The translations under genes were made by a program, and so were the position numbers. Shown in pieces: positions 2,260 through 59,903 of a stretch of 64,000 nucleotides of DNA (the first letter of the stretch is position 1; the number at the start of each line of letters is the position of its first letter). Under the pieces are notes generated by a model that ran no database searches, was not told the DNA's origin, and saw nothing but the letters and a program-made list of their open reading frames with translations. The stretch lies in NCBI RefSeq assembly GCF_056746865.1, contig NZ_CM163382.1; one strand, 5' to 3'.

Positions 2260-3209
<950 letters not shown>

Positions 3210-3235
<26 letters not shown>

Positions 3236-3938
3236 GATGCCAGCGCAGCAAGTTTGCCATCGCAAAGAGATATTTTTCGCTGGCTTCGTCGGAGGAGATG
3301 GGTGGAAACTCTGCGGTGATGCAATGCAGGTTGAGATCCGCACACCAACTGCCGAAAGAGCCAGGCGTTTCATAACCGACGCTGGTTACCAGAGGCAATT
3401 CAAACGCCTGGGCCAGCCATTCACCTAATTCGCTGTGTCTGGGATCTTCAATACAGGCCAGCGGATCGTGGAATGAGACCACCCAGGCGGGTTGAATGCG
3501 GTGTATAAGCTGGCACAGCGCCTGGGTTTCAGGTTCAGAGCCAGGTTTGTCACCTGTCAGCAATACGACATCACGTTCTTCAGCGGCGCTGTTCCAGCGA
3601 TAAACGGTTTCACCTTCCTTCCAATTCGCCGCCGGAAAGTTTCTGTTTAAATCCACACCATTAGCATTGGCCCGTAACCCCAACTGGCAGCCGTCAGGAT
3701 TCACACACAGCACCACATGATGACGGCGCAAAGAAGGTGTCAACGTCCGCAGAGCACAGGAGAGCGTGACGACCGAAGAGTTTTCATCACCGTGAGTGCC
3801 AGCCAGAATCAAACCACTTTCGCGGCTGGCTGCAGGGGCAGGAAACCAGATTAACGGCGCGCCCAATAATGAACGTCCGTAATGTTCTGTTCCGGGCGGA
3901 AATGCGCCGCGTTCGGCGCGTGGGCGGGTTACGGTCAT
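3210..3938 (-). CDS. mpaA: Murein tripeptide amidase A (zinc carboxypeptidase-like), 242 aa
   Basis: ORF 3210..3998; start set to internal Met (MTVTRPRAERGAF...) giving 242 aa; 3' end overlaps ycjG 3' end on opposite strand. Confidence 0.88.
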
Positions 3939-4033
3939 GATCGTCTCTGGTTCAGGAAGTATTACAGGCAGTGTTGTGCAAATTTTGCGGATTATCAAAT
4001 CCTTTTCTTCAACGCTATGTCATCGATCTTGTA

Positions 4034-4064
4034 TCACTTTTTTGCCGGAAGTTGTTTGCATTTT
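4034..4064. promoter_or_regulatory. Conserved ~30-bp motif upstream of mpaA (near-identical copy upstream of mppA)
   Basis: tcacttttttgccggaagttgtttgcatttt here versus tcacttttttgatggaagttgtttgcatttc at 7145..7175; 28/31 identical. Confidence 0.45.
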
Positions 4065-4228
4065 CATTGATGTGCAGATATTAGAATTGTCGTAATGTTA
4101 TATACATGGCGTATTTTATTCTTACTGGTTCTACACATGTTAATCGCATCTGATTGATCAGTTCACCTTAATAAGTTTAATAAATCGTACTGCACATAGT
4201 ACAGTACGAAGGTAGCTATATAATTGAT

Positions 4229-4867
4229 TTACATGAAGAATGGCTTATCGCCATCAGTCCCGGGCTGATTGATGCCTATATTCTCACCAATGTGTTTCTC
4301 AGGTTTATCGATGATATCTGTAATTAATGCTGCGACACTCTTACGTGATACGATCGTACCTTTGAATGGTTCATTGCGTGAGGTAAGCTCATAATCAATA
4401 ATATCTTCATCGGTCAGCCAGGCAGGGCGAAGAATTGTATATTCCAGTCCAGAAGCCTCAATTGCATCCGCAGCCCTGCGGAATGGTTTTAGGGGCTCAC
4501 CAATAACTGCATTATTCCATTCGCCAAATTTTCCTGGAACTTCATCATAAATACCGAGGGAAAGAACAAAGATCAGACGTTTAACATCACAGGCTTTCAT
4601 CGCAGCGATCACTGAATTTGCCTGAATATCTAAATCTTCCCCCGTAAGGTTGGCATACACAACATCCTGTCCCTGCATGGCCTGCTTCAGTGCCGCATGA
4701 TTCAGTACATCCCCCATAATAATCTTGCTATTAGTTGGATAGGGTTTGTGGATTTTTGCTGGCTGACGGGCAAATAAAGTTTGTTTAATGGTTTGTTTAT
4801 CTGCCAGTTGATTAATCACATGGCGGGCTATCTGACCGCCAGCACCAAGAATCAGTACATTTTTCAT
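4229..4867 (-). CDS. ymjC: NAD(P)-binding NmrA/SDR-like oxidoreductase, 212 aa, uninterrupted
   Basis: N-terminal Rossmann motif ILGAGGQIARHV; position between mpaA and ycjY; symbol assigned by synteny and is less certain than the product class. Confidence 0.7.
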   Translation of the reverse strand: MKNVLILGAGGQIARHVINQLADKQTIKQTLFARQPAKIHKPYPTNSKIIMGDVLNHAALKQAMQGQDVVYANLTGEDLDIQANSVIAAMKACDVKRLIFVLSLGIYDEVPGKFGEWNNAVIGEPLKPFRRAADAIEASGLEYTILRPAWLTDEDIIDYELTSRNEPFKGTIVSRKSVAALITDIIDKPEKHIGENIGINQPGTDGDKPFFM

Positions 4868-4937
4868 GAAACTTTTCCCAGATTATTGGCAGCAATATGC
4901 CAGGCCATATCACTATTACGGATTTGAATATGTTTCA

Positions 4938-5858
4938 TTACAGAGTTTCCTCAAAGAACGGCGCTAATACTGAAATTGCTTCAGCCACATAGACTTTGCC
5001 GTCATAAAGATCCATATGGTTTGCGCCTTCAACAATGTGATAGCGTTTATCCTGGCTTGATGCTCGATCGTACAGGTCGTCACTCATCCATTTGCTCCCT
5101 GCCTGGCTGCCCGCCACAATCTGTATCGGCTGAGTCAGGTACACTTCCGCCATATGGTAAGCATCATAGGTAATAATCTGGTTAAGGCTGCGCAAAGTAG
5201 TGTAACCCGGTGCTGTTGGATACTGCGCGCGAGGGGTGTGGTAATACTCCCAGGCCTGACGCAGTTCTTCGTTCGGCGCATCGGACTCCTTCATTGGTGC
5301 CAGTGGCATGGTGGCGTATTCTCCGCTGCTAATATCGCTGGTTCGGGCGTTTGAACCCGCGTCAACGTATGGTAGGGCATCAATAGATTTCACATTGTTT
5401 TCCCAACCATTACGGAACATCGAACCAATATTGACCGCACTAACAGTACCGATGGCCTTGATGCGGCGATCCTGAATTGCAGCATTGGCTGTATATCCTG
5501 CACCGGCACAAATTCCCATCGCACCAATTCGGCTATTGTCGACATAAGAAAGCGTTGTCAGATAATCAATCACGGCACTGACGTCTTCAGTACGAATGTA
5601 TGGGTTTTCTAACTGACGCGGCTCGCCGCCGCTTTCACCTTGATAAGATGCGTCATAAGCAATAGTGACAAATCCCTTTTCCGCCAGTTTTTCGGCATAG
5701 GTTCCAGCCGTTTGCTCTTTAACGCCCCCACCTGGGTGAGATACCACAATTGCCGGATACTGACGGGTTTCATCAAATTTTGGAGGGAAATAGATCACTG
5801 CAGACAAAGAGATGGTTGGATTATTGCTGTTAGTGAAGCTGACTTTATTATTCATCAT
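4938..5858 (-). CDS. ycjY: Alpha/beta hydrolase (dienelactone hydrolase-like), 306 aa
   Basis: ORF 4938..5870; start set to internal Met for 306 aa; GxSxG-like segment GAMGICAGAGY. Confidence 0.8.
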   Translation of the reverse strand: MMNNKVSFTNSNNPTISLSAVIYFPPKFDETRQYPAIVVSHPGGGVKEQTAGTYAEKLAEKGFVTIAYDASYQGESGGEPRQLENPYIRTEDVSAVIDYLTTLSYVDNSRIGAMGICAGAGYTANAAIQDRRIKAIGTVSAVNIGSMFRNGWENNVKSIDALPYVDAGSNARTSDISSGEYATMPLAPMKESDAPNEELRQAWEYYHTPRAQYPTAPGYTTLRSLNQIITYDAYHMAEVYLTQPIQIVAGSQAGSKWMSDDLYDRASSQDKRYHIVEGANHMDLYDGKVYVAEAISVLAPFFEETL

Positions 5859-35944: not shown

Positions 35945-36369
35945 TTTCATATCCATATCCATATTCATTATGTTGCGCCATTTTGTGAATATTTAAGGGA
36001 AAATAAGTTCTGGACTAAGGCGATTTTTATTTGCATCTATTGAATTGTTATAAGTCCGATATAGGGGAGTGTCTATTTTATTTTTGATGGTTTTTTATGT
36101 GTAATTATAATTGTAAGAAATGTTATATTATTTAGTATTTACTGGGTGTATTGTTTTTTAATGCCTTAACCTCTTATTAAATATCATTTAAGTTGAATTG
36201 ACTTCAACGGATAGTATAAATTATTAGAACATCACATATTTTTGATTGGTTCTTTATTTATATTTCTTTCGTGAATATAAACACCAATCATGGTCTTGCG
36301 TTCCGTCAAAAAGGCCCGCTTTTATTTTTGTCGACTGGCGTGCAACGCTCTATTTCTAAGGAAATATAA

Positions 36370-39300
36370 ATGCAAAGGAAAAAATTGTTGTCTGTGTGTG
36401 TGGCGATGGCATTGAGCGGTCAGACATGGGCAACTGATACATCGATCCTGGATATAACTGATGACACCCGGAAATCCAGCAAGATCACATGTCCGGCGAA
36501 TATTCATTCTATTAGCAAAGAGCAGTTAGCTAAATTACCATCAGAATGTCGGGATTCTGATGACAGCGCCGTAATGAGCTGGACTGCAGCTGGCCTGGTT
36601 GCAGTCGTTACAGGAGCCGCGGTGATGGCGCTTAATGATGGTGATCATCATGACAGTTCAGAACCAGATGACGGTGGTGATACACCTGTTCCACCAGATG
36701 ACGGTGGTGATACACCTGTTCCACCAGATGACGGTGGTGATACACCTGTTCCTCCAGATGACGGTGGCGATACACCAGTTCCACCAGACGATGGTGGCGA
36801 TACACCAGTTCCACCAGACGACGGTGGTGATACACCTGTTCCTCCAGATGACGGTGGCGACGTCACTCCACCAAAAGAGCCCAAAATCTTCAATAACAGT
36901 GTCACATTCGACGAAGACAAAGGCACGCTGCAAATTCGCAATGCCACCTTTACCTACAGCAAAAACAGTGATGGAAGTTACACCCTGACGGCTGAAGATG
37001 GCCGAACCTCTATTGTGCAGGGCTGGGATGTCGACACCGATGCCAATACGGTAGAAATTACCGGCGTGAATAACCTTGGCGGTATGACGTGGTGTTACGG
37101 TAAAGACGGCATTATCTATATCACCAAAACCGTCGGCGCAACGGTGGATGACCCCGCGAACAGCAACGTATTTAACCTCAGCGATGCGGTGCTCACCGAC
37201 CAGGGCGGTAATGCCGCGCTGAATGGCGCGACGGTGATTGAAATAAACGGCAGCAGGATCGCCCTTAATAACGACGGTGATATTTCTGCTACGGGAAAAG
37301 ATTCTGTGGTTGTGGCGATAACCGGAAACGATATTACCGTTAACAATAACGGCCATATGGTTGTCGATGGCGGCACAGCGGGCGTGGTTAACGGCGATCG
37401 TGCAATCCTGAATAACCGCGGTGATGCAGTGATCACTAACGGCGGCACGGGTGTCATTGTGACGGGTGACAACGCGGTTATCAACAACATGGGGCAAAGC
37501 GATATTGATGGCGACAACTCGGTATCGGTAAAAGTTGCAGGAAACGCAACCAGAATCAGAATGGAAGGCGGGATCAATGTCAGCGGTGGCGCGCATGGCA
37601 TTGATGCCACCGGTGATAATAACGAAGTCAGCAACAAGGGCAACATTTCGGTGGTGGATGCGCATTCCACGGGCGTGCTGCTGAACGGCGATCGCGCGTC
37701 ATTCATTAATATGGGTGATATTAACGTTAGCGGAGGTGCAGCGGACGATCACTCTAATGGTGTGCAGATCAACGGCGATAACAGTACCTTTATCAACGTT
37801 GGAGATTTAAATGCCGACGACAGGGCGACCGGGGTGAAAATTAACGGTGACGCCAGCGACATTGCCCTGGCCGGGGCGATGCATGTCGGGGATTTTTCCA
37901 CCGGGCTGGAGGTGATGGGTAAAAACAATGATCTGTCGTTGTCCACCAATATGATGGATGTCACCGGGAAACAGTCCACCGGGGTGACCATTACAGGTGA
38001 TGATAATACCATTGATATCACCGGTGATATGGTCGTTGATCAAAACTCTGTCGGGGCGAAAATTGTCGGCGATCGCGTTTCGTTGCAACAGAAAGGTGAT
38101 ATTACCGTTAACGGTGCGGGGCACGGCGTTGAAGTCAGCGGTAGTAAGACGACAATCAATAATCAGGGCAAACTGACCGTAAAAGATCAAGACTCAATCG
38201 GTATCGTTATCACCGGAGATGACGCGCAATTTACTACCGTGGGTGAGATTGATGTCTCGCTGAACGGTACGGGTGTTGCGATCAGCGGCGATCGTGAACA
38301 AGTGAATTTGAGCGGTGATATAAATGTCATTCAGGAGCGTGACGGCAGCGGTACTTTCCAGGGCGGAACGGGCATCAGCATAATGAGCAACGACAGCAGT
38401 ATGCTGTTGACGGGAAACATTAATGTGACGTCCAGTATGGGGGACCAACCGTCCACCTCACCCCAGTCGTTAACCGGCGTTACCATCGAGGGGGAAAACA
38501 ATACTGTCGATCTGGAAGGCGACATCAATATTACTGTCGATTCGGATTACCTGGGGGATGAAAACAGTCTTTACGGCGTGGTTGTTTTGGGTACAAACAA
38601 CACCATCAATCTCGATGGTGGTATCAATATCTCTGGTGATAGTGGTGGACATACTATCAAAGGTGTGCAGGTAACAGGAAATAATACCGTCAATATAAGT
38701 GGTCATTCCGTAATGAATACCCGACAGATATTGGGATCCTTCTCTCTGATTTCGGTGGCTGATGGCGGGAATGTCATATTTGATGAAAACGCGATAACCG
38801 AGATTCAGAGTTCAGTGAGAGATAGTGACTATCTTTTTTTCGATGCATCGTTAATTGTTGCTACGGGAAACCAGTCTGTTATTCAGAACAACGGCATTAT
38901 TAATACAACCGATGCTCAAGAATTAATGATGGCGAATTCGGGGGCGCAAGTTGTCAATGCCGGGGTGATTAATATCAGGCCAGATGCTGAATCACACACT
39001 TTCTTTGCTGGAATGATGGCAAGAAGCGATGACTCGCAGGCAAAAAATGCCTCCGGAGGAACAATCAATCTGACATCCATTACCCGGCCTTTTAGCAGCG
39101 GAGGATTTAACGAGCGCCCGATCAAATGGTATCACAACACGGGTTATGCCTTGTTGGCCAGTAATTACGGATCGGTAATCAATGAAACAGGAGCAACCAT
39201 TAATTTGCATGGTGCAGGAACCTATGGTGTTTCCGCTTCAAAAGGAACGGCGACCAATGCGGGCGAGATAAATGTCGACGGCTTTGTTCCAATAGTAGAT

Positions 39301-42189
39301 GAAAACGGTAATATTATTGATGAAACTTACTGGCAGACCAATTCCGTATATCTGATGGGGGGCGGGATGTTGGCAGGTTCAACGGATACCGGCGACGGTG
39401 ATGCTAAAGCGGTGAATACCGGTATCATCAACGTTAAGAATGAAGGCTTCGGCATGCTGGCGATGAACGGTGGGACCGTTGTAAACCAAGGGACAATCAA
39501 TCTCACCGCCGATGAGGGCGTGACGAAGCAGCAAGATAACCAACTGTTCGCGATGGGAGCCATTCAGGGTGGTCTGGCGATTAATGACCAGGATGGGGTT
39601 ATTAATATTAACACTGATATTGGCCAGGCGTTTTATAAAGATGGCACCGGCACCATTCTCAACTATGGAAAAATTAATCTTTTCGGTAATCCAATGGATG
39701 AAAGTGATTCCCACATTGGCGTTACGCCGGATGACAAAGATATTCTCAGTGAGCTGTCTGGCAGCGGCGAGAGCATCAGTAAAACTACAACTAGCGACGG
39801 TTTTATCGCAGTTAATAACCTGGCAAACTATGGCGACGAAACGCTTAACGGCGACGTTATAGCAAATGGCTGGATATTCAACCAACCTGATGCCAGCCTA
39901 ACAATCAACGGCGAACTGAGCGTAAACCAGGGGTTGGAAAACAGTGGTCACCTGGATGTTGACAGCATTAACAGCAAAACCACGATATATAACCGTGAAA
40001 CAGGGAGCATAACAACCGATCTGCTGACGTTGAATGGCGCGGTTTCCTTCTTTAATGAAGGCGAATTTAATGGTTCAATTACCGGAGACAGCTACCAACA
40101 GAATGTGGTGAATACCGATGAAATGACGGTGACCGAAGATGGCCACTCACTCGTCAACGGAAGTTTCCTGTTCTTCAATGAGGCTGGCGCGACCCTGACA
40201 AATAGCGGTAATGCGGTAACGGGCGGGGAAAACGCGATTATTCATGTAACCAGAACCAGTGATTCTGTTTCGCAGGTTAACCGTGGCACCATCACGGCCA
40301 CAAATGGCTATAGCGCAATCAAAACTGAAAATACTGGCTCGAACAGTAACGGGAAATGGATTTGGAATACGGAAACAGGAGTGATAAATGGTATTAATCC
40401 TGCTGCACCGTTGGTTGATTTAGGACGAGGTTATAACTTTGCTAACGCTGGCGTTATTAATGTTCAGGGCGATAATGCAGTGGGCATCAGTGGCGGCACA
40501 ACCAGCTATGTTGTCCAGTTGGTGAACAGTGGCATCATTAATGTGGGTACTGAGCAGGGGCAACTGGATGGAACCAACGGCGAAGGTTTAATTGGTATTA
40601 AGGGCAATGGTCGGGAAACGACAATTAATAACACGCAAACGGGTGTGATTAATGTCTATGCCGATAACTCCTGGGCGTTTGGTGGGCAAACGAAAGCCAT
40701 CATTAACAACGGTGAAATTAATCTGCTGTGTGACACCGGATGCGATATTTATGCTCCAGGAACGACGGGGGCGCAAAACGATCACAACGGTACTGCGGAT
40801 ATTACCGTACCAGAGGCATCAACCACGCCGCCACAAGGTAATGTTCCAACGCCACCTGTCGATTCAAATGCACCGCAACTGCTGAGCAACTATACCATTG
40901 GTACCAACAGCGACGGGAGTTCGGGTACGCTCAGCGCGAATAACCTGGTTATTGGCGACAACGTGAGTGTTAACGCCGGGTTTAGTGCAGGAACTGCGGA
41001 CACCACCGTTGTCGTTAACGATGTATTCAAAGGCGAAAACATCAGCGGTGTGGATAACATCGTTTCCTCTACTGTTGTCTGGAACGCTAAAGGCAGCACC
41101 GATGCCAGCGGCAACGTTGACGTCACTATGAGCAAAAACGCTTATACCGATGTGGCGACCGATGCTTCGGTGAATGACGTCGCGAAAGCACTGGATGCGG
41201 GTTACACCAACAACGAGCTGTATACCAGCCTGAACGTCGGCACGACTGCCGAACTGAACAGTGCCCTGAAACAGGTCAGCGGTAGCCAGGCGACCACGGT
41301 ATTCCGCGAAGCGCGCGTGCTAAGCAACCGCTTTAGCATGCTGGCGGATGCCGCACCGAAAGTGGGTAACGGTCTGGCGTTCAACGTTGTTGCGAAAGGC
41401 GATCCGCGCGCGGAGCTGGGGAACAATACCGAGTACGACATGCTGGCATTGCGTAAAACCATCGACCTGAGCGAAAGCCAGACGATGAGTCTGGAGTACG
41501 GTATCGCGCGCCTCGATGGCGACGGTGCGCAGAAAGCGGGTGATAATGGCGTTACAGGCGGTTATAGCCAGTTCTTTGGCCTGAAACATCAGATGTCCTT
41601 CGACAACGGCATGAACTGGAATAACGCATTGCGTTATGACGTTCACAACCTTGACAGCAGCCGTTCGATTGCATTTAGCAACACAAACAAAACGGCTGAT
41701 ACCGACGTGAAGCAGCAGTACCTGGAGTTCCGCAGCGAAGGGGCGAAGACTTTCGAACCGAGCGAAGGACTGAAGGTTACGCCATATGCGGGTGTTAAAC
41801 TGCGTCACACACTGGAAGGTGGCTATCAAGAGCGCAATGCCGGAGACTTTAACCTGAATATGAACAGTGGCAGCGAAACGGCGGTGGACAGCATCGTCGG
41901 GTTGAAACTGGATTACGCAGGTAAAGACGGCTGGAGCGCTAGCGCTACGCTGGAAGGCGGGCCGAACCTGAGCTACGCGAAGAGCCAGCGTACGGCAAGC
42001 CTGGCAGGCGCAGGCAGTCAGCACTTTAATGTCGATGACGGTCAGAAGGGCGGCGGCATCAACAGCCTGGCAAGCGTCGGCGTGAAGTACAGCAGCAAAG
42101 AAAGTTCGCTGAATCTGGATGCTTACCACTGGAAAGAGGACGGCATCAGCGATAAAGGCGTGATGCTGAACTTCAAGAAAACGTTCTAA
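36370..42189 (+). CDS. ydbA: Large autotransporter (type Va) adhesin-like protein, 1939 aa, uninterrupted
   Basis: signal peptide, six full DDGGDTPVPP decapeptide repeats, long Gly/Asn/Thr-rich beta-helix-like passenger, C-terminal approx 280-aa beta-barrel ending ...VMLNFKKTF. Confidence 0.85.
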   Translation: MQRKKLLSVCVAMALSGQTWATDTSILDITDDTRKSSKITCPANIHSISKEQLAKLPSECRDSDDSAVMSWTAAGLVAVVTGAAVMALNDGDHHDSSEPDDGGDTPVPPDDGGDTPVPPDDGGDTPVPPDDGGDTPVPPDDGGDTPVPPDDGGDTPVPPDDGGDVTPPKEPKIFNNSVTFDEDKGTLQIRNATFTYSKNSDGSYTLTAEDGRTSIVQGWDVDTDANTVEITGVNNLGGMTWCYGKDGIIYITKTVGATVDDPANSNVFNLSDAVLTDQGGNAALNGATVIEINGSRIALNNDGDISATGKDSVVVAITGNDITVNNNGHMVVDGGTAGVVNGDRAILNNRGDAVITNGGTGVIVTGDNAVINNMGQSDIDGDNSVSVKVAGNATRIRMEGGINVSGGAHGIDATGDNNEVSNKGNISVVDAHSTGVLLNGDRASFINMGDINVSGGAADDHSNGVQINGDNSTFINVGDLNADDRATGVKINGDASDIALAGAMHVGDFSTGLEVMGKNNDLSLSTNMMDVTGKQSTGVTITGDDNTIDITGDMVVDQNSVGAKIVGDRVSLQQKGDITVNGAGHGVEVSGSKTTINNQGKLTVKDQDSIGIVITGDDAQFTTVGEIDVSLNGTGVAISGDREQVNLSGDINVIQERDGSGTFQGGTGISIMSNDSSMLLTGNINVTSSMGDQPSTSPQSLTGVTIEGENNTVDLEGDINITVDSDYLGDENSLYGVVVLGTNNTINLDGGINISGDSGGHTIKGVQVTGNNTVNISGHSVMNTRQILGSFSLISVADGGNVIFDENAITEIQSSVRDSDYLFFDASLIVATGNQSVIQNNGIINTTDAQELMMANSGAQVVNAGVINIRPDAESHTFFAGMMARSDDSQAKNASGGTINLTSITRPFSSGGFNERPIKWYHNTGYALLASNYGSVINETGATINLHGAGTYGVSASKGTATNAGEINVDGFVPIVDENGNIIDETYWQTNSVYLMGGGMLAGSTDTGDGDAKAVNTGIINVKNEGFGMLAMNGGTVVNQGTINLTADEGVTKQQDNQLFAMGAIQGGLAINDQDGVININTDIGQAFYKDGTGTILNYGKINLFGNPMDESDSHIGVTPDDKDILSELSGSGESISKTTTSDGFIAVNNLANYGDETLNGDVIANGWIFNQPDASLTINGELSVNQGLENSGHLDVDSINSKTTIYNRETGSITTDLLTLNGAVSFFNEGEFNGSITGDSYQQNVVNTDEMTVTEDGHSLVNGSFLFFNEAGATLTNSGNAVTGGENAIIHVTRTSDSVSQVNRGTITATNGYSAIKTENTGSNSNGKWIWNTETGVINGINPAAPLVDLGRGYNFANAGVINVQGDNAVGISGGTTSYVVQLVNSGIINVGTEQGQLDGTNGEGLIGIKGNGRETTINNTQTGVINVYADNSWAFGGQTKAIINNGEINLLCDTGCDIYAPGTTGAQNDHNGTADITVPEASTTPPQGNVPTPPVDSNAPQLLSNYTIGTNSDGSSGTLSANNLVIGDNVSVNAGFSAGTADTTVVVNDVFKGENISGVDNIVSSTVVWNAKGSTDASGNVDVTMSKNAYTDVATDASVNDVAKALDAGYTNNELYTSLNVGTTAELNSALKQVSGSQATTVFREARVLSNRFSMLADAAPKVGNGLAFNVVAKGDPRAELGNNTEYDMLALRKTIDLSESQTMSLEYGIARLDGDGAQKAGDNGVTGGYSQFFGLKHQMSFDNGMNWNNALRYDVHNLDSSRSIAFSNTNKTADTDVKQQYLEFRSEGAKTFEPSEGLKVTPYAGVKLRHTLEGGYQERNAGDFNLNMNSGSETAVDSIVGLKLDYAGKDGWSASATLEGGPNLSYAKSQRTASLAGAGSQHFNVDDGQKGGGINSLASVGVKYSSKESSLNLDAYHWKEDGISDKGVMLNFKKTF
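36667..36870 (+). repeat. In-frame 30-bp tandem repeat array inside ydbA (six full units plus a degenerate seventh)
   Basis: gatgacggtggtgatacacctgttccacca repeated with synonymous variation; encodes DDGGDTPVPP. Confidence 0.9.
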
Positions 42190-51235: not shown

Positions 51236-54200
51236 ATGACAGAACAACAAAAATTGACCTTTACGGCCTTGCAGCAGCGGCTGGATTCGCTGATGCTGCG
51301 CGACAGACAGCGTTTTTCTCGCCGTCTGCACGGTGTTAAGAAGGTTAAAAATCCTGATGCACAACAGGCCATTTTCCAGGAGATGGCGAAAGAGATTGAC
51401 CAGGCGGCAGGGAAAGTCCTGCTGCGTGAAGCGGCACGACCGGAAATCACTTATCCCGACAATTTGCCGGTTAGTCAGAAAAAGCAGGACATTCTCGACG
51501 CGATTCGTGATCACCAGGTGGTGATCGTCGCCGGGGAAACCGGTTCCGGTAAAACGACTCAGCTACCGAAAATCTGTATGGAGCTGGGGCGCGGGATTAA
51601 AGGGCTGATCGGTCATACCCAACCGCGTCGCCTGGCGGCACGAACGGTGGCGAACCGTATTGCGGAAGAGCTGAAAACGGAGCCGGGCGGTTGCATCGGT
51701 TACAAAGTGCGTTTCAGCGATCACGTAAGTGATAACACGATGGTCAAGCTGATGACCGACGGTATCCTGCTGGCGGAGATCCAGCAAGACCGCCTGCTGA
51801 TGCAGTACGACACTATCATTATTGACGAAGCGCACGAACGTAGCCTGAATATCGATTTTCTGCTCGGCTATTTGAAAGAGTTGCTGCCGCGGCGTCCTGA
51901 CCTAAAAATCATTATCACTTCCGCGACTATCGACCCGGAACGCTTTTCGCGCCACTTTAATAATGCGCCGATTATCGAAGTCTCCGGTCGGACCTATCCG
52001 GTGGAAGTGCGCTATCGCCCGATTGTTGAAGAAGCCGATGACACCGAGCGCGATCAGTTGCAGGCGATTTTTGACGCCGTAGACGAACTGAGTCAGGAAA
52101 GCCCTGGCGACATTCTGATCTTTATGAGTGGTGAGCGGGAAATTCGCGATACCGCCGATGCGCTGAACAAGCTGAACTTACGCCATACCGAAATCTTGCC
52201 GCTTTATGCGCGGCTTTCGAACAGCGAACAGAACCGCGTGTTCCAGTCGCACAGCGGACGGCGTATTGTGCTGGCGACCAACGTCGCGGAAACGTCGCTG
52301 ACCGTTCCGGGGATTAAATACGTTATCGACCCAGGTACGGCGCGTATCAGCCGCTACAGCTATCGCACCAAAGTGCAGCGTTTGCCGATTGAGCCCATTT
52401 CGCAGGCGTCTGCCAACCAGCGTAAAGGCCGCTGTGGTCGTGTGTCCGAAGGGATCTGTATTCGTCTCTATTCCGAAGACGATTTCCTCTCGCGCCCGGA
52501 GTTTACCGATCCGGAGATTCTGCGTACCAACCTGGCCTCGGTTATTTTACAGATGACCGCGCTGGGGTTGGGCGATATCGCCGCGTTCCCATTTGTCGAA
52601 GCACCGGATAAACGTAATATCCAGGATGGCGTGCGTCTGCTCGAAGAGCTGGGCGCGATCACCACGGATGAACAGGCCAGCGCCTATAAACTGACACCGC
52701 TCGGTCGCCAGCTTTCGCAATTGCCTGTCGATCCTCGTCTGGCGCGTATGGTGCTGGAAGCGCAAAAACATGGCTGCGTGCGTGAGGCGATGATTATCAC
52801 GTCCGCGCTCTCCATTCAGGATCCGCGCGAGCGTCCGATGGATAAACAGCAGGCATCGGACGAAAAACATCGCCGCTTCCACGACAAAGAATCCGACTTC
52901 CTCGCGTTTGTAAATCTGTGGAATTATCTTGGCGAGCAGCAAAAGGCGCTTTCTTCCAACGCCTTCCGTCGCCTGTGTCGTACCGATTATCTCAACTATC
53001 TGCGCGTGCGCGAATGGCAGGATATCTACACCCAGTTGCGCCAGGTGGTGAAAGAACTTGGCATTCCGGTTAACAGCGAACCGGCGGAGTATCGTGAAAT
53101 TCACATTGCGTTGCTGACGGGTTTACTTTCCCATATCGGCATGAAAGATGCCGATAAACAAGAATATACCGGCGCACGTAACGCGCGTTTCTCCATTTTC
53201 CCCGGTTCCGGCTTATTTAAAAAGCCGCCGAAATGGGTAATGGTGGCGGAACTGGTAGAAACCAGCCGCCTGTGGGGGCGCATTGCGGCACGTATCGACC
53301 CTGAATGGGTAGAACCCGTTGCTCAGCATTTGATTAAACGCACCTACAGCGAACCGCACTGGGAACGGGCGCAGGGCGCGGTGATGGCAACGGAAAAAGT
53401 CACTGTTTATGGTTTGCCGATTGTTGCTGCGCGTAAGGTCAACTACAGCCAGATCGATCCGGCGTTATGTCGTGAACTCTTTATTCGCCACGCGCTGGTG
53501 GAAGGTGACTGGCAGACGCGTCACGCATTCTTCCGTGAAAACCTGAAACTGCGGGCCGAAGTGGAAGAGCTGGAACACAAATCACGTCGCCGCGATATTC
53601 TGGTTGATGACGAAACGCTGTTTGAGTTTTACGACCAGCGCATCAGCCACGATGTGATCTCAGCACGTCACTTCGACAGCTGGTGGAAAAAAGTCAGCCG
53701 CGAAACGCCTGATTTGCTCAACTTTGAAAAGAGCATGTTGATCAAAGAAGGGGCGGAAAAGATCAGCAAGCTGGATTATCCGAACTTCTGGCATCAGGGC
53801 AATCTCAAGCTGCGTTTGAGCTATCAGTTTGAGCCCGGCGCGGATGCTGACGGTGTGACTGTGCATATCCCGCTGCCGTTACTTAACCAGGTTGAGGAGA
53901 GTGGGTTTGAGTGGCAGATCCCCGGCCTGCGTCGTGAACTGATCATCGCACTGATTAAATCATTGCCGAAACCAGTACGCCGTAATTTTGTACCTGCGCC
54001 AAACTATGCCGAAGCGTTTTTAGGCCGCGTCACACCGCTGGAATTGCCGTTGCTCGACAGCCTTGAACGAGAGCTACGGCGGATGACTGGCGTCACCGTT
54101 GACCGCGAAGACTGGCACTGGGATCAGGTGCCCGATCACCTGAAAATCACATTCCGCGTGGTGGATGACAAAAACAAGAAGCTAAAAGAAGGGCGCTCAT

Positions 54201-55138
54201 TACAAGATCTGAAAGATGCTCTGAAAGGCAAAGTACAGGAAACGCTATCTGCCGTGGCGGATGACGGTATCGAGCAGAGTGGCTTACATATCTGGAGTTT
54301 TGGTCAGCTGCCGGAAAGCTACGAACAGAAGCGTGGCAACTACAAAGTGAAGGCGTGGCCAGCGTTGGTGGATGAGCGCGACAGTGTGGCGATCAAACTG
54401 TTTGATAACCCGCTGGAGCAAAAACAGGCAATGTGGAACGGTCTTCGCCGTCTACTGCTGCTGAATATTCCATCGCCGATCAAGTATTTGCATGAGAAGT
54501 TGCCAAACAAAGCCAAACTTGGGCTGTACTTTAACCCGTATGGCAAAGTGCTGGAGCTGATAGACGACTGTATCTCCTGCGGTGTGGATCAACTGATCGA
54601 CGCCAATGGTGGCCCGGTCTGGACGGAAGAAGGTTTTGCTGCGCTGCATGAAAAAGTCCGTGCTGAACTGAACGACACGGTGGTGGATATTGCGAAGCAG
54701 GTCGAGCAAATCCTTACTGCGGTGTTCAATATCAATAAACGTCTGAAAGGGCGGGTGGATATGACCATGGCGCTGGGGCTTTCTGACATTAAAGCGCAGA
54801 TGGGCGGGTTGGTATATCGCGGTTTCGTCACTGGTAACGGCTTCAAACGGTTGGGCGACACGCTGCGTTATTTGCAGGCGATTGAAAAACGGCTGGAAAA
54901 ACTGGCGGTTGACCCACATCGCGACCGAGCTCAGATGCTGAAAGTCGAAAATGTCCAGCAGGCGTGGCAGCAATGGATCAACAAACTGCCGCCCGCACGT
55001 CGTGAGGATGAAGACGTGAAAGAGATCCGCTGGATGATAGAAGAGCTGCGCGTTAGTTACTTCGCTCAACAACTTGGTACGCCTTATCCGATTTCAGATA
55101 AGCGTATTTTGCAGGCGATGGAGCAGATTAGCGGTTAA
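51236..55138 (+). CDS. hrpA: ATP-dependent DEAH-box RNA helicase HrpA, 1300 aa
   Basis: Walker A GETGSGKTTQ, DEAH (IIDEAHERS), HA2/OB domains. Confidence 0.93.
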   Translation: MTEQQKLTFTALQQRLDSLMLRDRQRFSRRLHGVKKVKNPDAQQAIFQEMAKEIDQAAGKVLLREAARPEITYPDNLPVSQKKQDILDAIRDHQVVIVAGETGSGKTTQLPKICMELGRGIKGLIGHTQPRRLAARTVANRIAEELKTEPGGCIGYKVRFSDHVSDNTMVKLMTDGILLAEIQQDRLLMQYDTIIIDEAHERSLNIDFLLGYLKELLPRRPDLKIIITSATIDPERFSRHFNNAPIIEVSGRTYPVEVRYRPIVEEADDTERDQLQAIFDAVDELSQESPGDILIFMSGEREIRDTADALNKLNLRHTEILPLYARLSNSEQNRVFQSHSGRRIVLATNVAETSLTVPGIKYVIDPGTARISRYSYRTKVQRLPIEPISQASANQRKGRCGRVSEGICIRLYSEDDFLSRPEFTDPEILRTNLASVILQMTALGLGDIAAFPFVEAPDKRNIQDGVRLLEELGAITTDEQASAYKLTPLGRQLSQLPVDPRLARMVLEAQKHGCVREAMIITSALSIQDPRERPMDKQQASDEKHRRFHDKESDFLAFVNLWNYLGEQQKALSSNAFRRLCRTDYLNYLRVREWQDIYTQLRQVVKELGIPVNSEPAEYREIHIALLTGLLSHIGMKDADKQEYTGARNARFSIFPGSGLFKKPPKWVMVAELVETSRLWGRIAARIDPEWVEPVAQHLIKRTYSEPHWERAQGAVMATEKVTVYGLPIVAARKVNYSQIDPALCRELFIRHALVEGDWQTRHAFFRENLKLRAEVEELEHKSRRRDILVDDETLFEFYDQRISHDVISARHFDSWWKKVSRETPDLLNFEKSMLIKEGAEKISKLDYPNFWHQGNLKLRLSYQFEPGADADGVTVHIPLPLLNQVEESGFEWQIPGLRRELIIALIKSLPKPVRRNFVPAPNYAEAFLGRVTPLELPLLDSLERELRRMTGVTVDREDWHWDQVPDHLKITFRVVDDKNKKLKEGRSLQDLKDALKGKVQETLSAVADDGIEQSGLHIWSFGQLPESYEQKRGNYKVKAWPALVDERDSVAIKLFDNPLEQKQAMWNGLRRLLLLNIPSPIKYLHEKLPNKAKLGLYFNPYGKVLELIDDCISCGVDQLIDANGGPVWTEEGFAALHEKVRAELNDTVVDIAKQVEQILTAVFNINKRLKGRVDMTMALGLSDIKAQMGGLVYRGFVTGNGFKRLGDTLRYLQAIEKRLEKLAVDPHRDRAQMLKVENVQQAWQQWINKLPPARREDEDVKEIRWMIEELRVSYFAQQLGTPYPISDKRILQAMEQISG

Positions 55139-55162
55139 CACTGCTATTTGCCTGATAAATCT

Positions 55163-55197
55163 AAAACCCGGTAAGCATTTAGCGCCGGGTTTTTTCT
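55163..55197 (+). terminator. Rho-independent terminator downstream of hrpA
   Basis: aaaacccggt-aagcatttagcg-ccgggtttttt hairpin plus T-tract. Confidence 0.7.
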
Positions 55198-55243
55198 TTA
55201 TGAATTCTGAAAAATAGCAAGGGAGATACTCCTTACGTGCTTA

Positions 55244-55543
55244 TTACAAATCTGCTTGATGAGGACGATATACTGGATACCAAATATTACTGCAACAAAG
55301 AACTTCACTGTTTTTGTCAGAAATAAAAATCGTAATTTCCATATCATCCCAACCTTTAACATCTCTGACTACCATCCATAATGGAATATCAAGGCCGTAT
55401 GATTTCATACCATCAGGAAGAAATTTAATAGCAGTGATTTTGTATGCCAGCGAGCCATTAAGATTATACTTTTTACAATATTTTTCTGCTATCGAATTCA
55501 CTTTGTTTTCAGTAAGAATAGGAGCGATTATTTTATTATTCAT
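55244..55543 (-). CDS. Hypothetical small protein (99 aa), AT-rich, translationally coupled to the upstream SUKH-like gene
   Basis: start ATG overlaps upstream stop (ATGA); GGAG 4 nt upstream; translation MNNKIIAPILTENKVNSIAEKYCKKYNLNGSLAYKITAIKFLPDGMKSYGLDIP...; no family recognised. Confidence 0.5.
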   Translation of the reverse strand: MNNKIIAPILTENKVNSIAEKYCKKYNLNGSLAYKITAIKFLPDGMKSYGLDIPLWMVVRDVKGWDDMEITIFISDKNSEVLCCSNIWYPVYRPHQADL

Positions 55544-56034
55544 GAGACTCCACATTGCTGTAAATAAAGAATAATTTCAACTTGCATTTCCACTAACTCA
55601 CCAAAATTTTCAAAGCATAACTCACAAGGGAAATCACCGACATCATCGGAAAATATACCAAAATCATGAATGAGAATATAAATTTTTAGGCTGTTGCGGT
55701 CAAGAAAAGCTACACTCCCATCGCCAAAACTGCCAACAGGAAAAGGATCAATGTTGTTCAATAATGGATATTCTTTTTTATAATCTTCCCATTGTTGCAA
55801 AAATAGAGGGTAATATCTGTCCAGATCCTTCAAAGTATAAATTTGAGGATCGACAAAATGACATGCGCCAAAATGAGACAATAACTGCCGATAGTCTTTT
55901 GGAATATGTGTTGCGTATTTATCCTCAAATAAAAGAAGGTTATCTTCAGTTTCCGGAGCGGTTACGCAACCTGTAAGTCCTGTTGTTTTTACGGCAGGCC
56001 AGGCGGTTTCTAAAATTTGAAACATTTTTTCCAT
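55540..56034 (-). CDS. SUKH/Smi1-Knr4-like putative immunity protein (164 aa)
   Basis: motifs resembling SUKH-1: ...HIPKDYRQLLSHFGACHF... and ...PFPVGSFGDGSVAFLDRNSLKIYILIHD...; AT-rich relative to flanks. Confidence 0.55.
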   Translation of the reverse strand: MEKMFQILETAWPAVKTTGLTGCVTAPETEDNLLLFEDKYATHIPKDYRQLLSHFGACHFVDPQIYTLKDLDRYYPLFLQQWEDYKKEYPLLNNIDPFPVGSFGDGSVAFLDRNSLKIYILIHDFGIFSDDVGDFPCELCFENFGELVEMQVEIILYLQQCGVS

Positions 56035-56423
56035 GTATGTTTCTCGACATATAGTATTATGTTGATGAATAAAAAGGACAATTTGTCTCCTTAGACGGAT
56101 AGTAGTTTATAGCTCAGGCCAGATATTATTCAATTTAAATTTAAGGATTTCCCATTAATGAGCGTGTTGCAAATGTTCCCATTGATTGAGAAATATAAGA
56201 ATGAATATTTCATAAATATCACACCAACTTATCTGTCACTTAAAAATGATAGAACATTATGTTATTGATGTTTTATCAACAGTTTCTCCGCAAATACAGT
56301 ATGACTAAAACCAGTGTCTGGTTCGCGATGGCGCGATAGAAAAAGGATCATCTTCCTTTCAGAGTGCTCCGCTTCTCACTATTATCTCACGCAGTATTCT
56401 TAAAGGAACGATAAGGAGGAACC

Positions 56424-57224
56424 ATGAACATTACCCCGTTTCCGACGCTTTCGCCGGCAACCATAGATGCTATAAATGTTATCGGACAGTGGCTGGCGCA
56501 GGATGATTTCTCCGGTGAGGTGCCGTATCAGGCCGATTGCGTGATCCTTGCAGGCAATGCGGTTATGCCGACTATCGACGCGGCATGTAAGATTGCTCGC
56601 GATCAGCAAATTCCTTTACTGATTAGTGGTGGTATCGGTCACTCGACAACTTTTTTGTATAGCGCCATCGCACAGCATCCGCACTACAACACTATCCGCA
56701 CCACTGGCAGAGCAGAAGCGACCATCCTGGCGGATATCGCTCATCAGTTCTGGCATATTCCGCATGAAAAAATCTGGATTGAAGACCAGTCAACAAACTG
56801 TGGTGAAAACGCACGCTTTAGCATCGCGCTATTGAATCAGGCCGTAGAACGAGTTCACACAGCTATCGTTGTTCAGGACCCCACCATGCAGCGGCGCACG
56901 ATGGCGACGTTCCGCCGTATGACCGGGGACAATCCCGATGCACCACGCTGGTTGAGTTATCCCGGATTCGTTCCTCAGTTAGGAAATAACGCAGACAGTG
57001 TAATCTTTATTAATCAGTTACAAGGATTATGGCCGGTTGAGCGTTATCTATCACTACTCACTGGCGAGCTGCCGCGTTTACACGATGATAGCGATGGCTA
57101 CGGTCCCCGCGGGCGAGATTTTATTGTTCACGTTGATTTTCCGGCAGAAGTCATCCAGGCATGGCAAACGCTGAAACACGATGCGGTGCTCATCGAGGCG
57201 ATGGAAAGTCGCTCGTTACGTTAA
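56424..57224 (+). CDS. ydcF: DUF218 (YdcF) family protein, 266 aa
   Basis: strong SD AAGGAGG upstream; synteny between hrpA and aldA. Confidence 0.85.
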
Positions 57225-58901: not shown

Positions 58902-59903
58902 TCAGAGTTTAGCGAATTTTTCGAGGGTGCGAATGAGCTGTGTGACGAAGCCATATTCGTTATCGTACCAGGCGACCGTTTTCACCAGTTGTAAATCGCC
59001 CACGGCGGTAATTTCGGTTTGCGTGGCATCAAACACCGACCCGAAATGGCTGCCTATGATATCAGAAGAGACTATTTCTTCATCGGTATAACCAAATGAC
59101 TCGTTATTGTTTGTCGCGTTTTTAAGCGCGTTGTTCACCTCTTCGGCAGTCACTTTTTTTCCAAGAATAGACACCAGTTCAGTCACCGAACCGGTTTTCA
59201 CGGGTACGCGTTGTGCATGACCTTTCAGTTTGCCGCTCAGTTCTGGGATCACCAGACCAATGGCTTTTGCCGCCCCCGTAGTGTGGGGAATGATATTTTC
59301 TGCCGCTGCACGTGAAGCGCGTAGATCTTTACCACGCGGGCCATCCACCAGTGACTGAGTGCCGGTATAGGCATGAATGGTCGTCATCGTGCCGACTTCT
59401 ATTCCGAAACTGTCGTGCAAGGCTTTGGCCATCGGTGCAAGACAATTAGTGGTGCATGACGCCACGGAAACAATGGTGTCGTTGCCATCCAGTGTGTCGT
59501 CATTGACGTTATAAACGATGGTTTTCATTTCACCGGCAGGGGCGGAAATCAACACCTTCTTCGCACCAGCATCAAGATGCGCCTGCGATTTCTCGGCGGA
59601 GGTATAAAAGCCAGTACATTCGACAATGATTTCTGCGCCTTTCGCTTTCCACGGAATATTTTTAGCCTCTTTTTCGGCGTAAACCGCGATACTTTTCCCA
59701 TCAACGATAAGTGAATCTTCCGTAAAATCAACGCGCCAGGGGAACGGTCCATAGTTTGAATCATGTTTCAGCAGGTAGGCGAGAATTTTTGGGGAAGTGA
59801 GATCATTAATAGCGACAACATCTATGTTGCTTTTGACTTCAAGTAATCGACGCAATACCAGTCGACCGATACGACCAAAACCGTTAATACCAACTTTACT
59901 CAT
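58902..59903 (-). CDS. gapC: Glyceraldehyde-3-phosphate dehydrogenase paralogue, 333 aa, uninterrupted
   Basis: N-terminal NAD-binding [10 protein letters not shown], catalytic SCTTNCLAP; one continuous frame. Confidence 0.88.

Follow-up and report, generated by a model that had tools for sequence, protein, structure and literature searches.

A lineage-restricted two-gene cassette encoding a SUKH-1 protein and a PepSY-like protein between hrpA and ydcF in Escherichia coli: a candidate orphan immunity-type gene pair

Analysis of a 64,000-nucleotide stretch of the Escherichia coli chromosome extending from tyrR to ydcI (the window) placed a two-gene, AT-rich cassette on the minus strand between hrpA and ydcF. 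It encodes a SUKH-1 (Smi1/Knr4) protein of 164 amino acids (aa) and a PepSY/cystatin-like protein of 99 aa that belongs to a rare, uncharacterized family. The interpretation we favor, with a probability of roughly 0.55, is that the cassette is an orphan immunity-type gene pair that was acquired horizontally and persists as a lineage-restricted islet. The SMI1/KNR4 annotation of the 164-aa protein is already public; the present analysis adds the assignment of the 99-aa protein as PepSY-like, the recognition of three alleles at the locus, and the finding that the pairing of the two families is not conserved. A literature search on the locus and on the protein accessions returned nothing.

The SUKH gene occupies positions 55540..56034 and the 99-aa gene positions 55244..55543 (both on the minus strand, stop codons included), flanked by hrpA (51236-55138) and ydcF (56424-57224) on the plus strand. 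The downstream open reading frame (ORF) spans 55244..55555 (-) and has 103 codons for amino acids, from which the internal ATG at 55543 yields the 99-aa product. Bases 55540..55543 read TCAT on the plus strand and ATGA on the minus strand, such that the TGA stop of the 164-aa gene overlaps the ATG of the 99-aa gene. This is a signature of translational coupling, and the RefSeq coding sequences show the same 4-nt overlap; a GGAG motif is located 4 nt upstream of the ATG. The first-pass annotation had described this arrangement, and both the coordinates and our direct reading of the sequence agree with it. The hrpA terminator hairpin (55155..55201, plus strand; inverted repeat I6) falls within the conserved left flank that is common to the K-12-type allele of the locus. 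A terminator-like hairpin with a T-run is found just 3′ of the 99-aa gene (55217..55236, minus strand), although this is weak evidence, as the consensus scan found 1 such structure against 1.0 expected by chance. Upstream of the SUKH gene, no minus-strand promoter reached the threshold of the consensus scan, and looser matches were unremarkable. A candidate 23-codon upstream ORF (about 56016-56095, minus strand), with a strong AAGGAG Shine-Dalgarno sequence and a TTG start and overlapping the SUKH start codon out of frame, was rejected as probably fortuitous because both the Shine-Dalgarno sequence and the TTG are absent from a divergent allele of the cassette with 94% identity (L006).

The base composition of the cassette is foreign to its surroundings, as the first-pass annotation had noticed by eye. 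The GC content in 300-bp windows is 0.30 to 0.38 over 55100-56450, compared with about 0.50 to 0.58 in hrpA and ydcF; expressed by gene, the flanking genes are at 51 to 53% GC against 34% around the two cassette genes. Third codon positions show the same difference (GC3 of 0.28 for the 164-aa gene and 0.25 for the 99-aa gene, versus 0.61 for hrpA and 0.52 for ydcF). When the 1,155-bp AT-rich segment was shuffled 2,000 times, the longest ATG-initiated ORF averaged 52 aa with a maximum of 130 aa; an ORF of 164 aa was never obtained (0/2,000), and ORFs of at least 99 aa arose in 1.7% of the shuffles.

Comparison of the window with the L006 allele counted 8.5 synonymous and 13.5 nonsynonymous changes in the SUKH gene (dN/dS, 0.39) and 8 synonymous and 10 nonsynonymous changes in the 99-aa gene (dN/dS, 0.28), values that rest on about 18 to 22 substitutions each between two alleles differing by 5 to 6%. 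Both genes are under purifying selection between these two E. coli alleles. These ratios, the ORF lengths relative to the shuffled sequences, and the existence of distant homologs for both products lead us to regard both ORFs as real genes. Nearly all carriers sampled have kept both frames open, and disruptions occur in individual strains. In the L006 allele, codon 13 of the 99-aa gene has lost 1 bp (equivalent to window position 55505), and the SUKH gene is intact. One strain has IS1 inserted in the SUKH gene with the 99-aa gene intact (L002, positions 2305-3002; NZ_CP030768.1), and another has it in the 99-aa gene (protein P0008, E. coli KTE122). The two IS1-disrupted predicted proteins end in the same IS1-derived peptide, and the insertions are independent. 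On the basis of these insertions and the frameshift, the pair is dispensable.

The 164-aa product had been proposed to be SUKH-like from its sequence motifs, and the profile and structure searches bear this out. Pfam profiles matched residues 27-129 with modest E values (SUKH_6, 2.8e-6; SMI1_KNR4, 1.8e-5; SUKH_5, 3.3e-5), the precomputed Pfam assignment of its cluster representative is PF09346, and the RefSeq name is SMI1/KNR4 family protein (WP_000413852.1). An exhaustive HMMER search recovered about 25 representatives at 34 to 54% identity, and a profile of this subfamily matched YobK of B. subtilis among PDB sequences (2prv; E value, 0.0023). The AF2 model of the monomer (pLDDT, 85.7) was matched by Foldseek against PDB to the Knr4 core (1.7e-5), BF1740 (3.3e-4), YobK (2.5e-3), and 2icg (3e-3), with further matches to the SUKH domain of FBXO3 and to Syd (TM-scores of about 0.5 to 0.65). 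By its Pfam matches, the YobK profile match, and the predicted fold, the protein is a bona fide SUKH-1 (Smi1/Knr4) member. It is acidic, with a pI of 4.4, and its homologs range from 4.0 to 4.5. The first-pass annotation had named two outcomes that would speak against its reading, namely the absence of any SUKH or immunity-family match or a universal cassette with ordinary codon usage and a housekeeping annotation; the searches returned SUKH matches, and the cassette is AT-rich, strain restricted, and free of any housekeeping annotation.

Relatives of the SUKH protein are found in two kinds of genomic context. Poly-immunity arrays surround them in two unrelated bacteria: P0014 (40% identity; locus L012) is encoded among four SMI1_KNR4 genes and genes for Imm68, DUF1963, and DUF4303, and a homolog with 38.8% identity on a Subdoligranulum variabile replicon (L024) is encoded among genes for SUKH-3, DUF1963, DUF4241, Imm51, and DUF4259. 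Elsewhere, relatives occur singly in housekeeping surroundings. P0013, which is the closest full-length relative, shares a 4-nt overlap with a beta-eliminating lyase gene in a metabolic neighborhood, and a donor-like homolog, P0016, is encoded on a contig of 662 bp that offers no context. As a separate observation, the genome encoding P0013 carries a gene of the colicin/pyocin-immunity family with three small unannotated neighbors some 4 kb off (L010, 5150-6689; L011, 168-1707).

The 99-aa protein had been said to match no recognizable family. This stands for sequence databases, since no match was obtained in Pfam (even at E ≤ 10), NCBIfam, PADLOC, or PDB sequences and the only PHROG match was nonsignificant (E value, 0.38), but the protein does have a recognizable fold. 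The monomer was modeled with confidence as a PepSY/cystatin-like domain, in which a helix packs on a four-stranded antiparallel sheet as in the PepSY fold, and the model matched PepSY, cystatin, and inhibitor domains with no toxin fold among the matches. A PepSY Pfam match (5e-4) was obtained for 1 of 10 family members, while the E. coli protein itself has none. The family is sparsely sampled: word-based protein searches returned E. coli sequences only, a profile added a few metagenomic ones, and an exhaustive search collected about ten distant, metagenomic representatives at 36 to 43% identity. A fold search added a homolog of 219 aa from Sebaldella termitidis (AFDB D1AJU5), and scans of species-representative genomes, viruses, and metagenomes for the family found nothing. 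The distant homologs share the motif W.V.YDV.GWDD...ISD.E..V.CCS...PH.

PepSY domains are typically extracytoplasmic and occur as peptidase propeptide, YpeB, or FoxB-type domains. The E. coli protein resembles the PepSY domain (PF03413) in its predicted fold and differs from it in lacking a Pfam match, in lacking a signal peptide or membrane anchor by inspection, and in having its own GWDD/ISD/CC motif. Its N terminus, MNNKIIAPILTENKVNSIAEKY, contains no hydrophobic signal or anchor segment on inspection of the sequence, and we therefore consider the protein to be a cytoplasmic PepSY-like domain. Among the homologs P0020, P0028, P0032, P0034, and P0048, several share a conserved basic tail (KKLTPxEKRLKR), and two others have an extra C-terminal domain, in one case DUF3781, for which PDB and the literature give no function. 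The E. coli protein has neither the tail nor an extra C-terminal domain.

In nine other loci, all of them on short contigs, the 99-aa homologs stand alone beside unrelated genes, with no adjacent SUKH gene and no conserved partner. Their neighbors include AraC/GyrI-like regulators, hpf and ribosomal genes, a two-component system, and a MazE-family gene; on one contig a SUKH gene is found 8 kb away. The first-pass annotation had left the choice between an orphan immunity pair and a small two-component module. An orphan pair is favored here, with no toxin gene linked, and an obligate module is disfavored by the separation of the two families in the other loci examined.

The presence of the cassette in K-12 had been left open, and it is now settled that K-12 MG1655 lacks it, with a spacer of 271 bp between hrpA and ydcF. 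Across 5,426 complete E. coli genomes, 185 (3.4%) carry the cassette, always as a single chromosomal copy. Copies at least 99% identical to that of the window account for 174 of the 185, and the remaining 11 are at about 94 to 95%; owing to this near identity, the spread of the cassette appears to be mostly clonal. Records of SUKH proteins nearly identical to this one exist for Escherichia fergusonii as well.

At least three alleles of the hrpA-ydcF spacer exist in E. coli, namely, the K-12-type allele, the SUKH cassette, and a four-gene array. The K-12-type allele is short and includes about 130 bp of its own sequence. The four-gene allele is present in 587 of the complete genomes, O157:H7 included, and is recorded in Shigella dysenteriae and E. 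fergusonii too. It encodes plus-strand hypothetical proteins of 141, 112, 143, and 125 aa (L004, positions 3312-5095; L005), none of which matched Pfam, NCBIfam, or PADLOC, with only the last one weakly matching a PHROG of unknown function; hhalign found no relation between these proteins and either cassette protein. Pairwise BLAST of the window against the other alleles (L001, L004, and L005) delimits 916 bp of cassette-specific DNA with 34.3% GC (55231..56146), which is absent from both. On the left, similarity to the K-12-type genome ends at about 55195-55213 and similarity to the four-gene allele at 55230; on the right, the shared flank begins at 56351 and at 56256, respectively.

Between the cassette-specific DNA and the common right flank lie degenerate remnants of the four-gene allele (56147..56350, plus strand), recognized as colinear BLAST matches to L004 and L005. 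Positions 56147-56182 match the 3′ end of its gene 3, positions 56201-56244 match the 5′ end of gene 4, and from 56256 onward the match covers the terminal (3′) part of gene 4 and then the shared spacer. A pseudogene fragment with a "missing N-terminus" is annotated by RefSeq in this stretch, which also lies upstream of the SUKH gene and forms its promoter region. The colinear order of the gene 3 and gene 4 remnants indicates that the cassette replaced most of a pre-existing four-gene array and did not insert into an empty site. The horizontal origin suggested in the first-pass annotation is thus supported by the foreign composition and strain-specific occurrence of the cassette, while a simple insertion is not. 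Judged from these sequence comparisons, the hrpA-ydcF spacer is a probable recombination-prone spot at which alleles replace one another.

The cassette carries none of the hallmarks of mobile elements. It differs from insertion sequences, transposons, and integrative islets in having no terminal inverted or direct repeats of note at its ends and no transposase or integrase; no tRNA-type or Rfam feature was found in it, and its genes are the two described only. The single Rfam signal was a subthreshold Leu_leader match on the hrpA terminator. Searches on plasmids and phages did not find the cassette genes, and no similar cassette copy was detected elsewhere in E. coli genomes at the DNA level. 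The absence of an adjacent toxin gene, pointed out previously, holds for the neighbors hrpA and ydcF and for the 64-kb window as a whole, which contains no toxin gene and no Rhs, contact-dependent inhibition (CDI), or type VI secretion system (T6SS) gene. Upstream of the SUKH gene there is no remnant of a toxin C-terminal (toxin-CT) region, as positions 56035-56350 are made up of 112 bp of cassette-specific DNA and the remnants of the other allele.

SUKH-1 proteins neutralize polymorphic toxins delivered by CDI, Rhs/T6SS, and T7SS systems by binding to their C-terminal toxin domains, most of which are nucleases, and blocking them. YobK of B. subtilis confers immunity to the LXG toxin YobL, and SUKH-type CdiI and RhsI proteins are of the same class. 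The 164-aa protein resembles the SUKH-1 (PF09346) immunity proteins in its profile and fold, as a small acidic cytoplasmic protein, and in having relatives in poly-immunity arrays. It differs from them in that the cassette lacks both a directly upstream toxin gene and a toxin-CT remnant and is without a similar DNA copy elsewhere in E. coli, and its neutralizing activity is putative. Since an adjacent toxin, as expected for a cognate immunity gene, is lacking, we file the SUKH gene as an orphan. Acquired interbacterial defense islands, which are toxin-less arrays of immunity genes, were reportedly described in Bacteroidales by Ross et al. in 2019. Like these islands and other orphan immunity genes, the cassette has no cognate toxin, was horizontally acquired, varies between strains, and occupies a replaceable locus; unlike the islands, it comprises two genes only and no recombinase or integrase, and protection by it is putative.

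The acidic SUKH protein would be expected to bind and block an incoming polymorphic-toxin domain, and the cotranslated PepSY-like protein may act as a second inhibitor- or immunity-type protein produced from the same transcript. The pair, if acting at all, might offer stand-alone protection against a toxin from other bacteria, a role that we propose because no toxin gene is linked to it and no similar copy of the cassette occurs elsewhere in E. coli. Alternatively, the cassette could be what is left of a toxin locus of an AT-rich donor, with its immunity end preserved. It reached the hrpA-ydcF spot by replacing most of the four-gene array, with no transposon or integrase signatures. The SUKH superfamily was defined in a paper that proposes immunity to non-self toxins as the role of SUKH genes found singly or in tandem and puts forward small stand-alone families in the same positions as alternative immunity proteins (PMC3113570).

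Collectively, several observations argue for an immunity-type role: the SUKH assignment, the low pI, the relatives in poly-immunity arrays, and the further relatives that are lone genes. The constant occurrence of the 99-aa family as a stand-alone small domain, the purifying selection, the foreign composition, the presence in 3.4% of genomes, and the occurrence in E. fergusonii point in the same direction. Against this, the window has no linked toxin and no toxin-CT remnant, the Pfam E values are modest, and the SUKH fold is also found in the nonimmunity proteins Syd, Knr4, and FBXO3. The 99-aa homologs adjoin housekeeping genes, not toxin genes, and the pair is dispensable. In addition, a motif as strongly conserved as the acidic and aromatic one of the 99-aa family (GWDD, ISD, and CC) would not usually be expected in fast-evolving immunity proteins; it may point to a partner that is itself conserved or to some other role. 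A bolder extension of the immunity reading, which we regard as improbable at present, is that the 99-aa protein founds a new family of cytoplasmic PepSY-like inhibitor or immunity proteins (motif W.V.YDV.GWDD...ISD...CC) that is coupled to the SUKH protein either as a two-layer orphan immunity unit or as a SUKH/PepSY-like complex with a new activity, and that the hrpA-ydcF spot is a hotspot of alternating small defense or immunity cassettes.

Other explanations were weighed against the orphan immunity pair. Both genes might be functionless hitchhikers, relics of a foreign locus drifting to loss with no present role in E. coli. The rarity and mostly clonal spread of the cassette fit this scenario, as do the IS1 insertions and frameshifts in individual strains, the missing partner toxin, and the recombination-prone locus with its alternating alleles. 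It is nevertheless an unlikely account, as both genes have a dN/dS well under 1 in the comparison of alleles differing by 5 to 6%, nearly all of the carriers sampled have both frames intact, and the gene has also been kept in E. fergusonii. A role unrelated to immunity, in which the SUKH protein would regulate a host process or serve as an adaptor in it and the PepSY-like protein would be its cofactor, draws on the existence of SUKH-fold proteins with other duties. Syd acts on SecY, and Knr4 acts in yeast. The best Foldseek matches of the SUKH model are to yeast Knr4, and P0013 overlaps a beta-eliminating lyase gene among metabolic genes. The foreign composition and patchy distribution, however, are ill-suited to a host housekeeping role, other relatives are located in immunity arrays, and the two families are unlinked elsewhere; we consider such a role very improbable.

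Equally doubtful is a self-contained toxin-antitoxin-like module, in which the 99-aa protein would be the toxin and the coupled upstream SUKH protein the antidote. The cassette shares with type II toxin-antitoxin operons its two small, overlapping, codirectional genes in an accessory AT-rich islet, and both the gene order, with the neutralizer first, and the ATGA overlap are reminiscent of such operons. The motif conserved in the 99-aa family contains Asp, Cys, and His and might form an active site, and the divergent allele with a frameshifted 99-aa gene and an intact SUKH gene displays the order of decay expected if a toxin were lost first. These likenesses are offset by the nine other loci in which 99-aa homologs reside beside housekeeping genes with no adjacent SUKH gene, an arrangement that a toxin could not tolerate, and by a fold that matches PepSY, cystatin, and inhibitor domains and not a toxin fold. 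Neither gene belongs to a recognizable toxin or antitoxin family in Pfam, NCBIfam, or PADLOC (with no toxin match in the latter two), and the pairing is not conserved outside E. coli. The strain with IS1 in the SUKH gene and an intact 99-aa gene also speaks against the module, although polarity could silence the downstream gene.

Should the orphan pair protect against a toxin from other bacteria, it would be a compact case of acquired orphan immunity in E. coli and would open a first route to the function of a rare PepSY-like family for which no annotation exists, and the hrpA-ydcF spacer, with its at least three alleles, would be worth tracking in interbacterial competition. If it does not protect, the cassette would be one more small accessory islet. 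Current understanding is not challenged by any of these findings. Two further genes of the window are of note in their own right. An intact autotransporter gene of about 1,940 to 1,960 codons is located at 36310-42189 on the plus strand, and a gapC-type glyceraldehyde-3-phosphate dehydrogenase gene at 58902-59903 on the minus strand is intact here and annotated as a pseudogene in K-12 MG1655.
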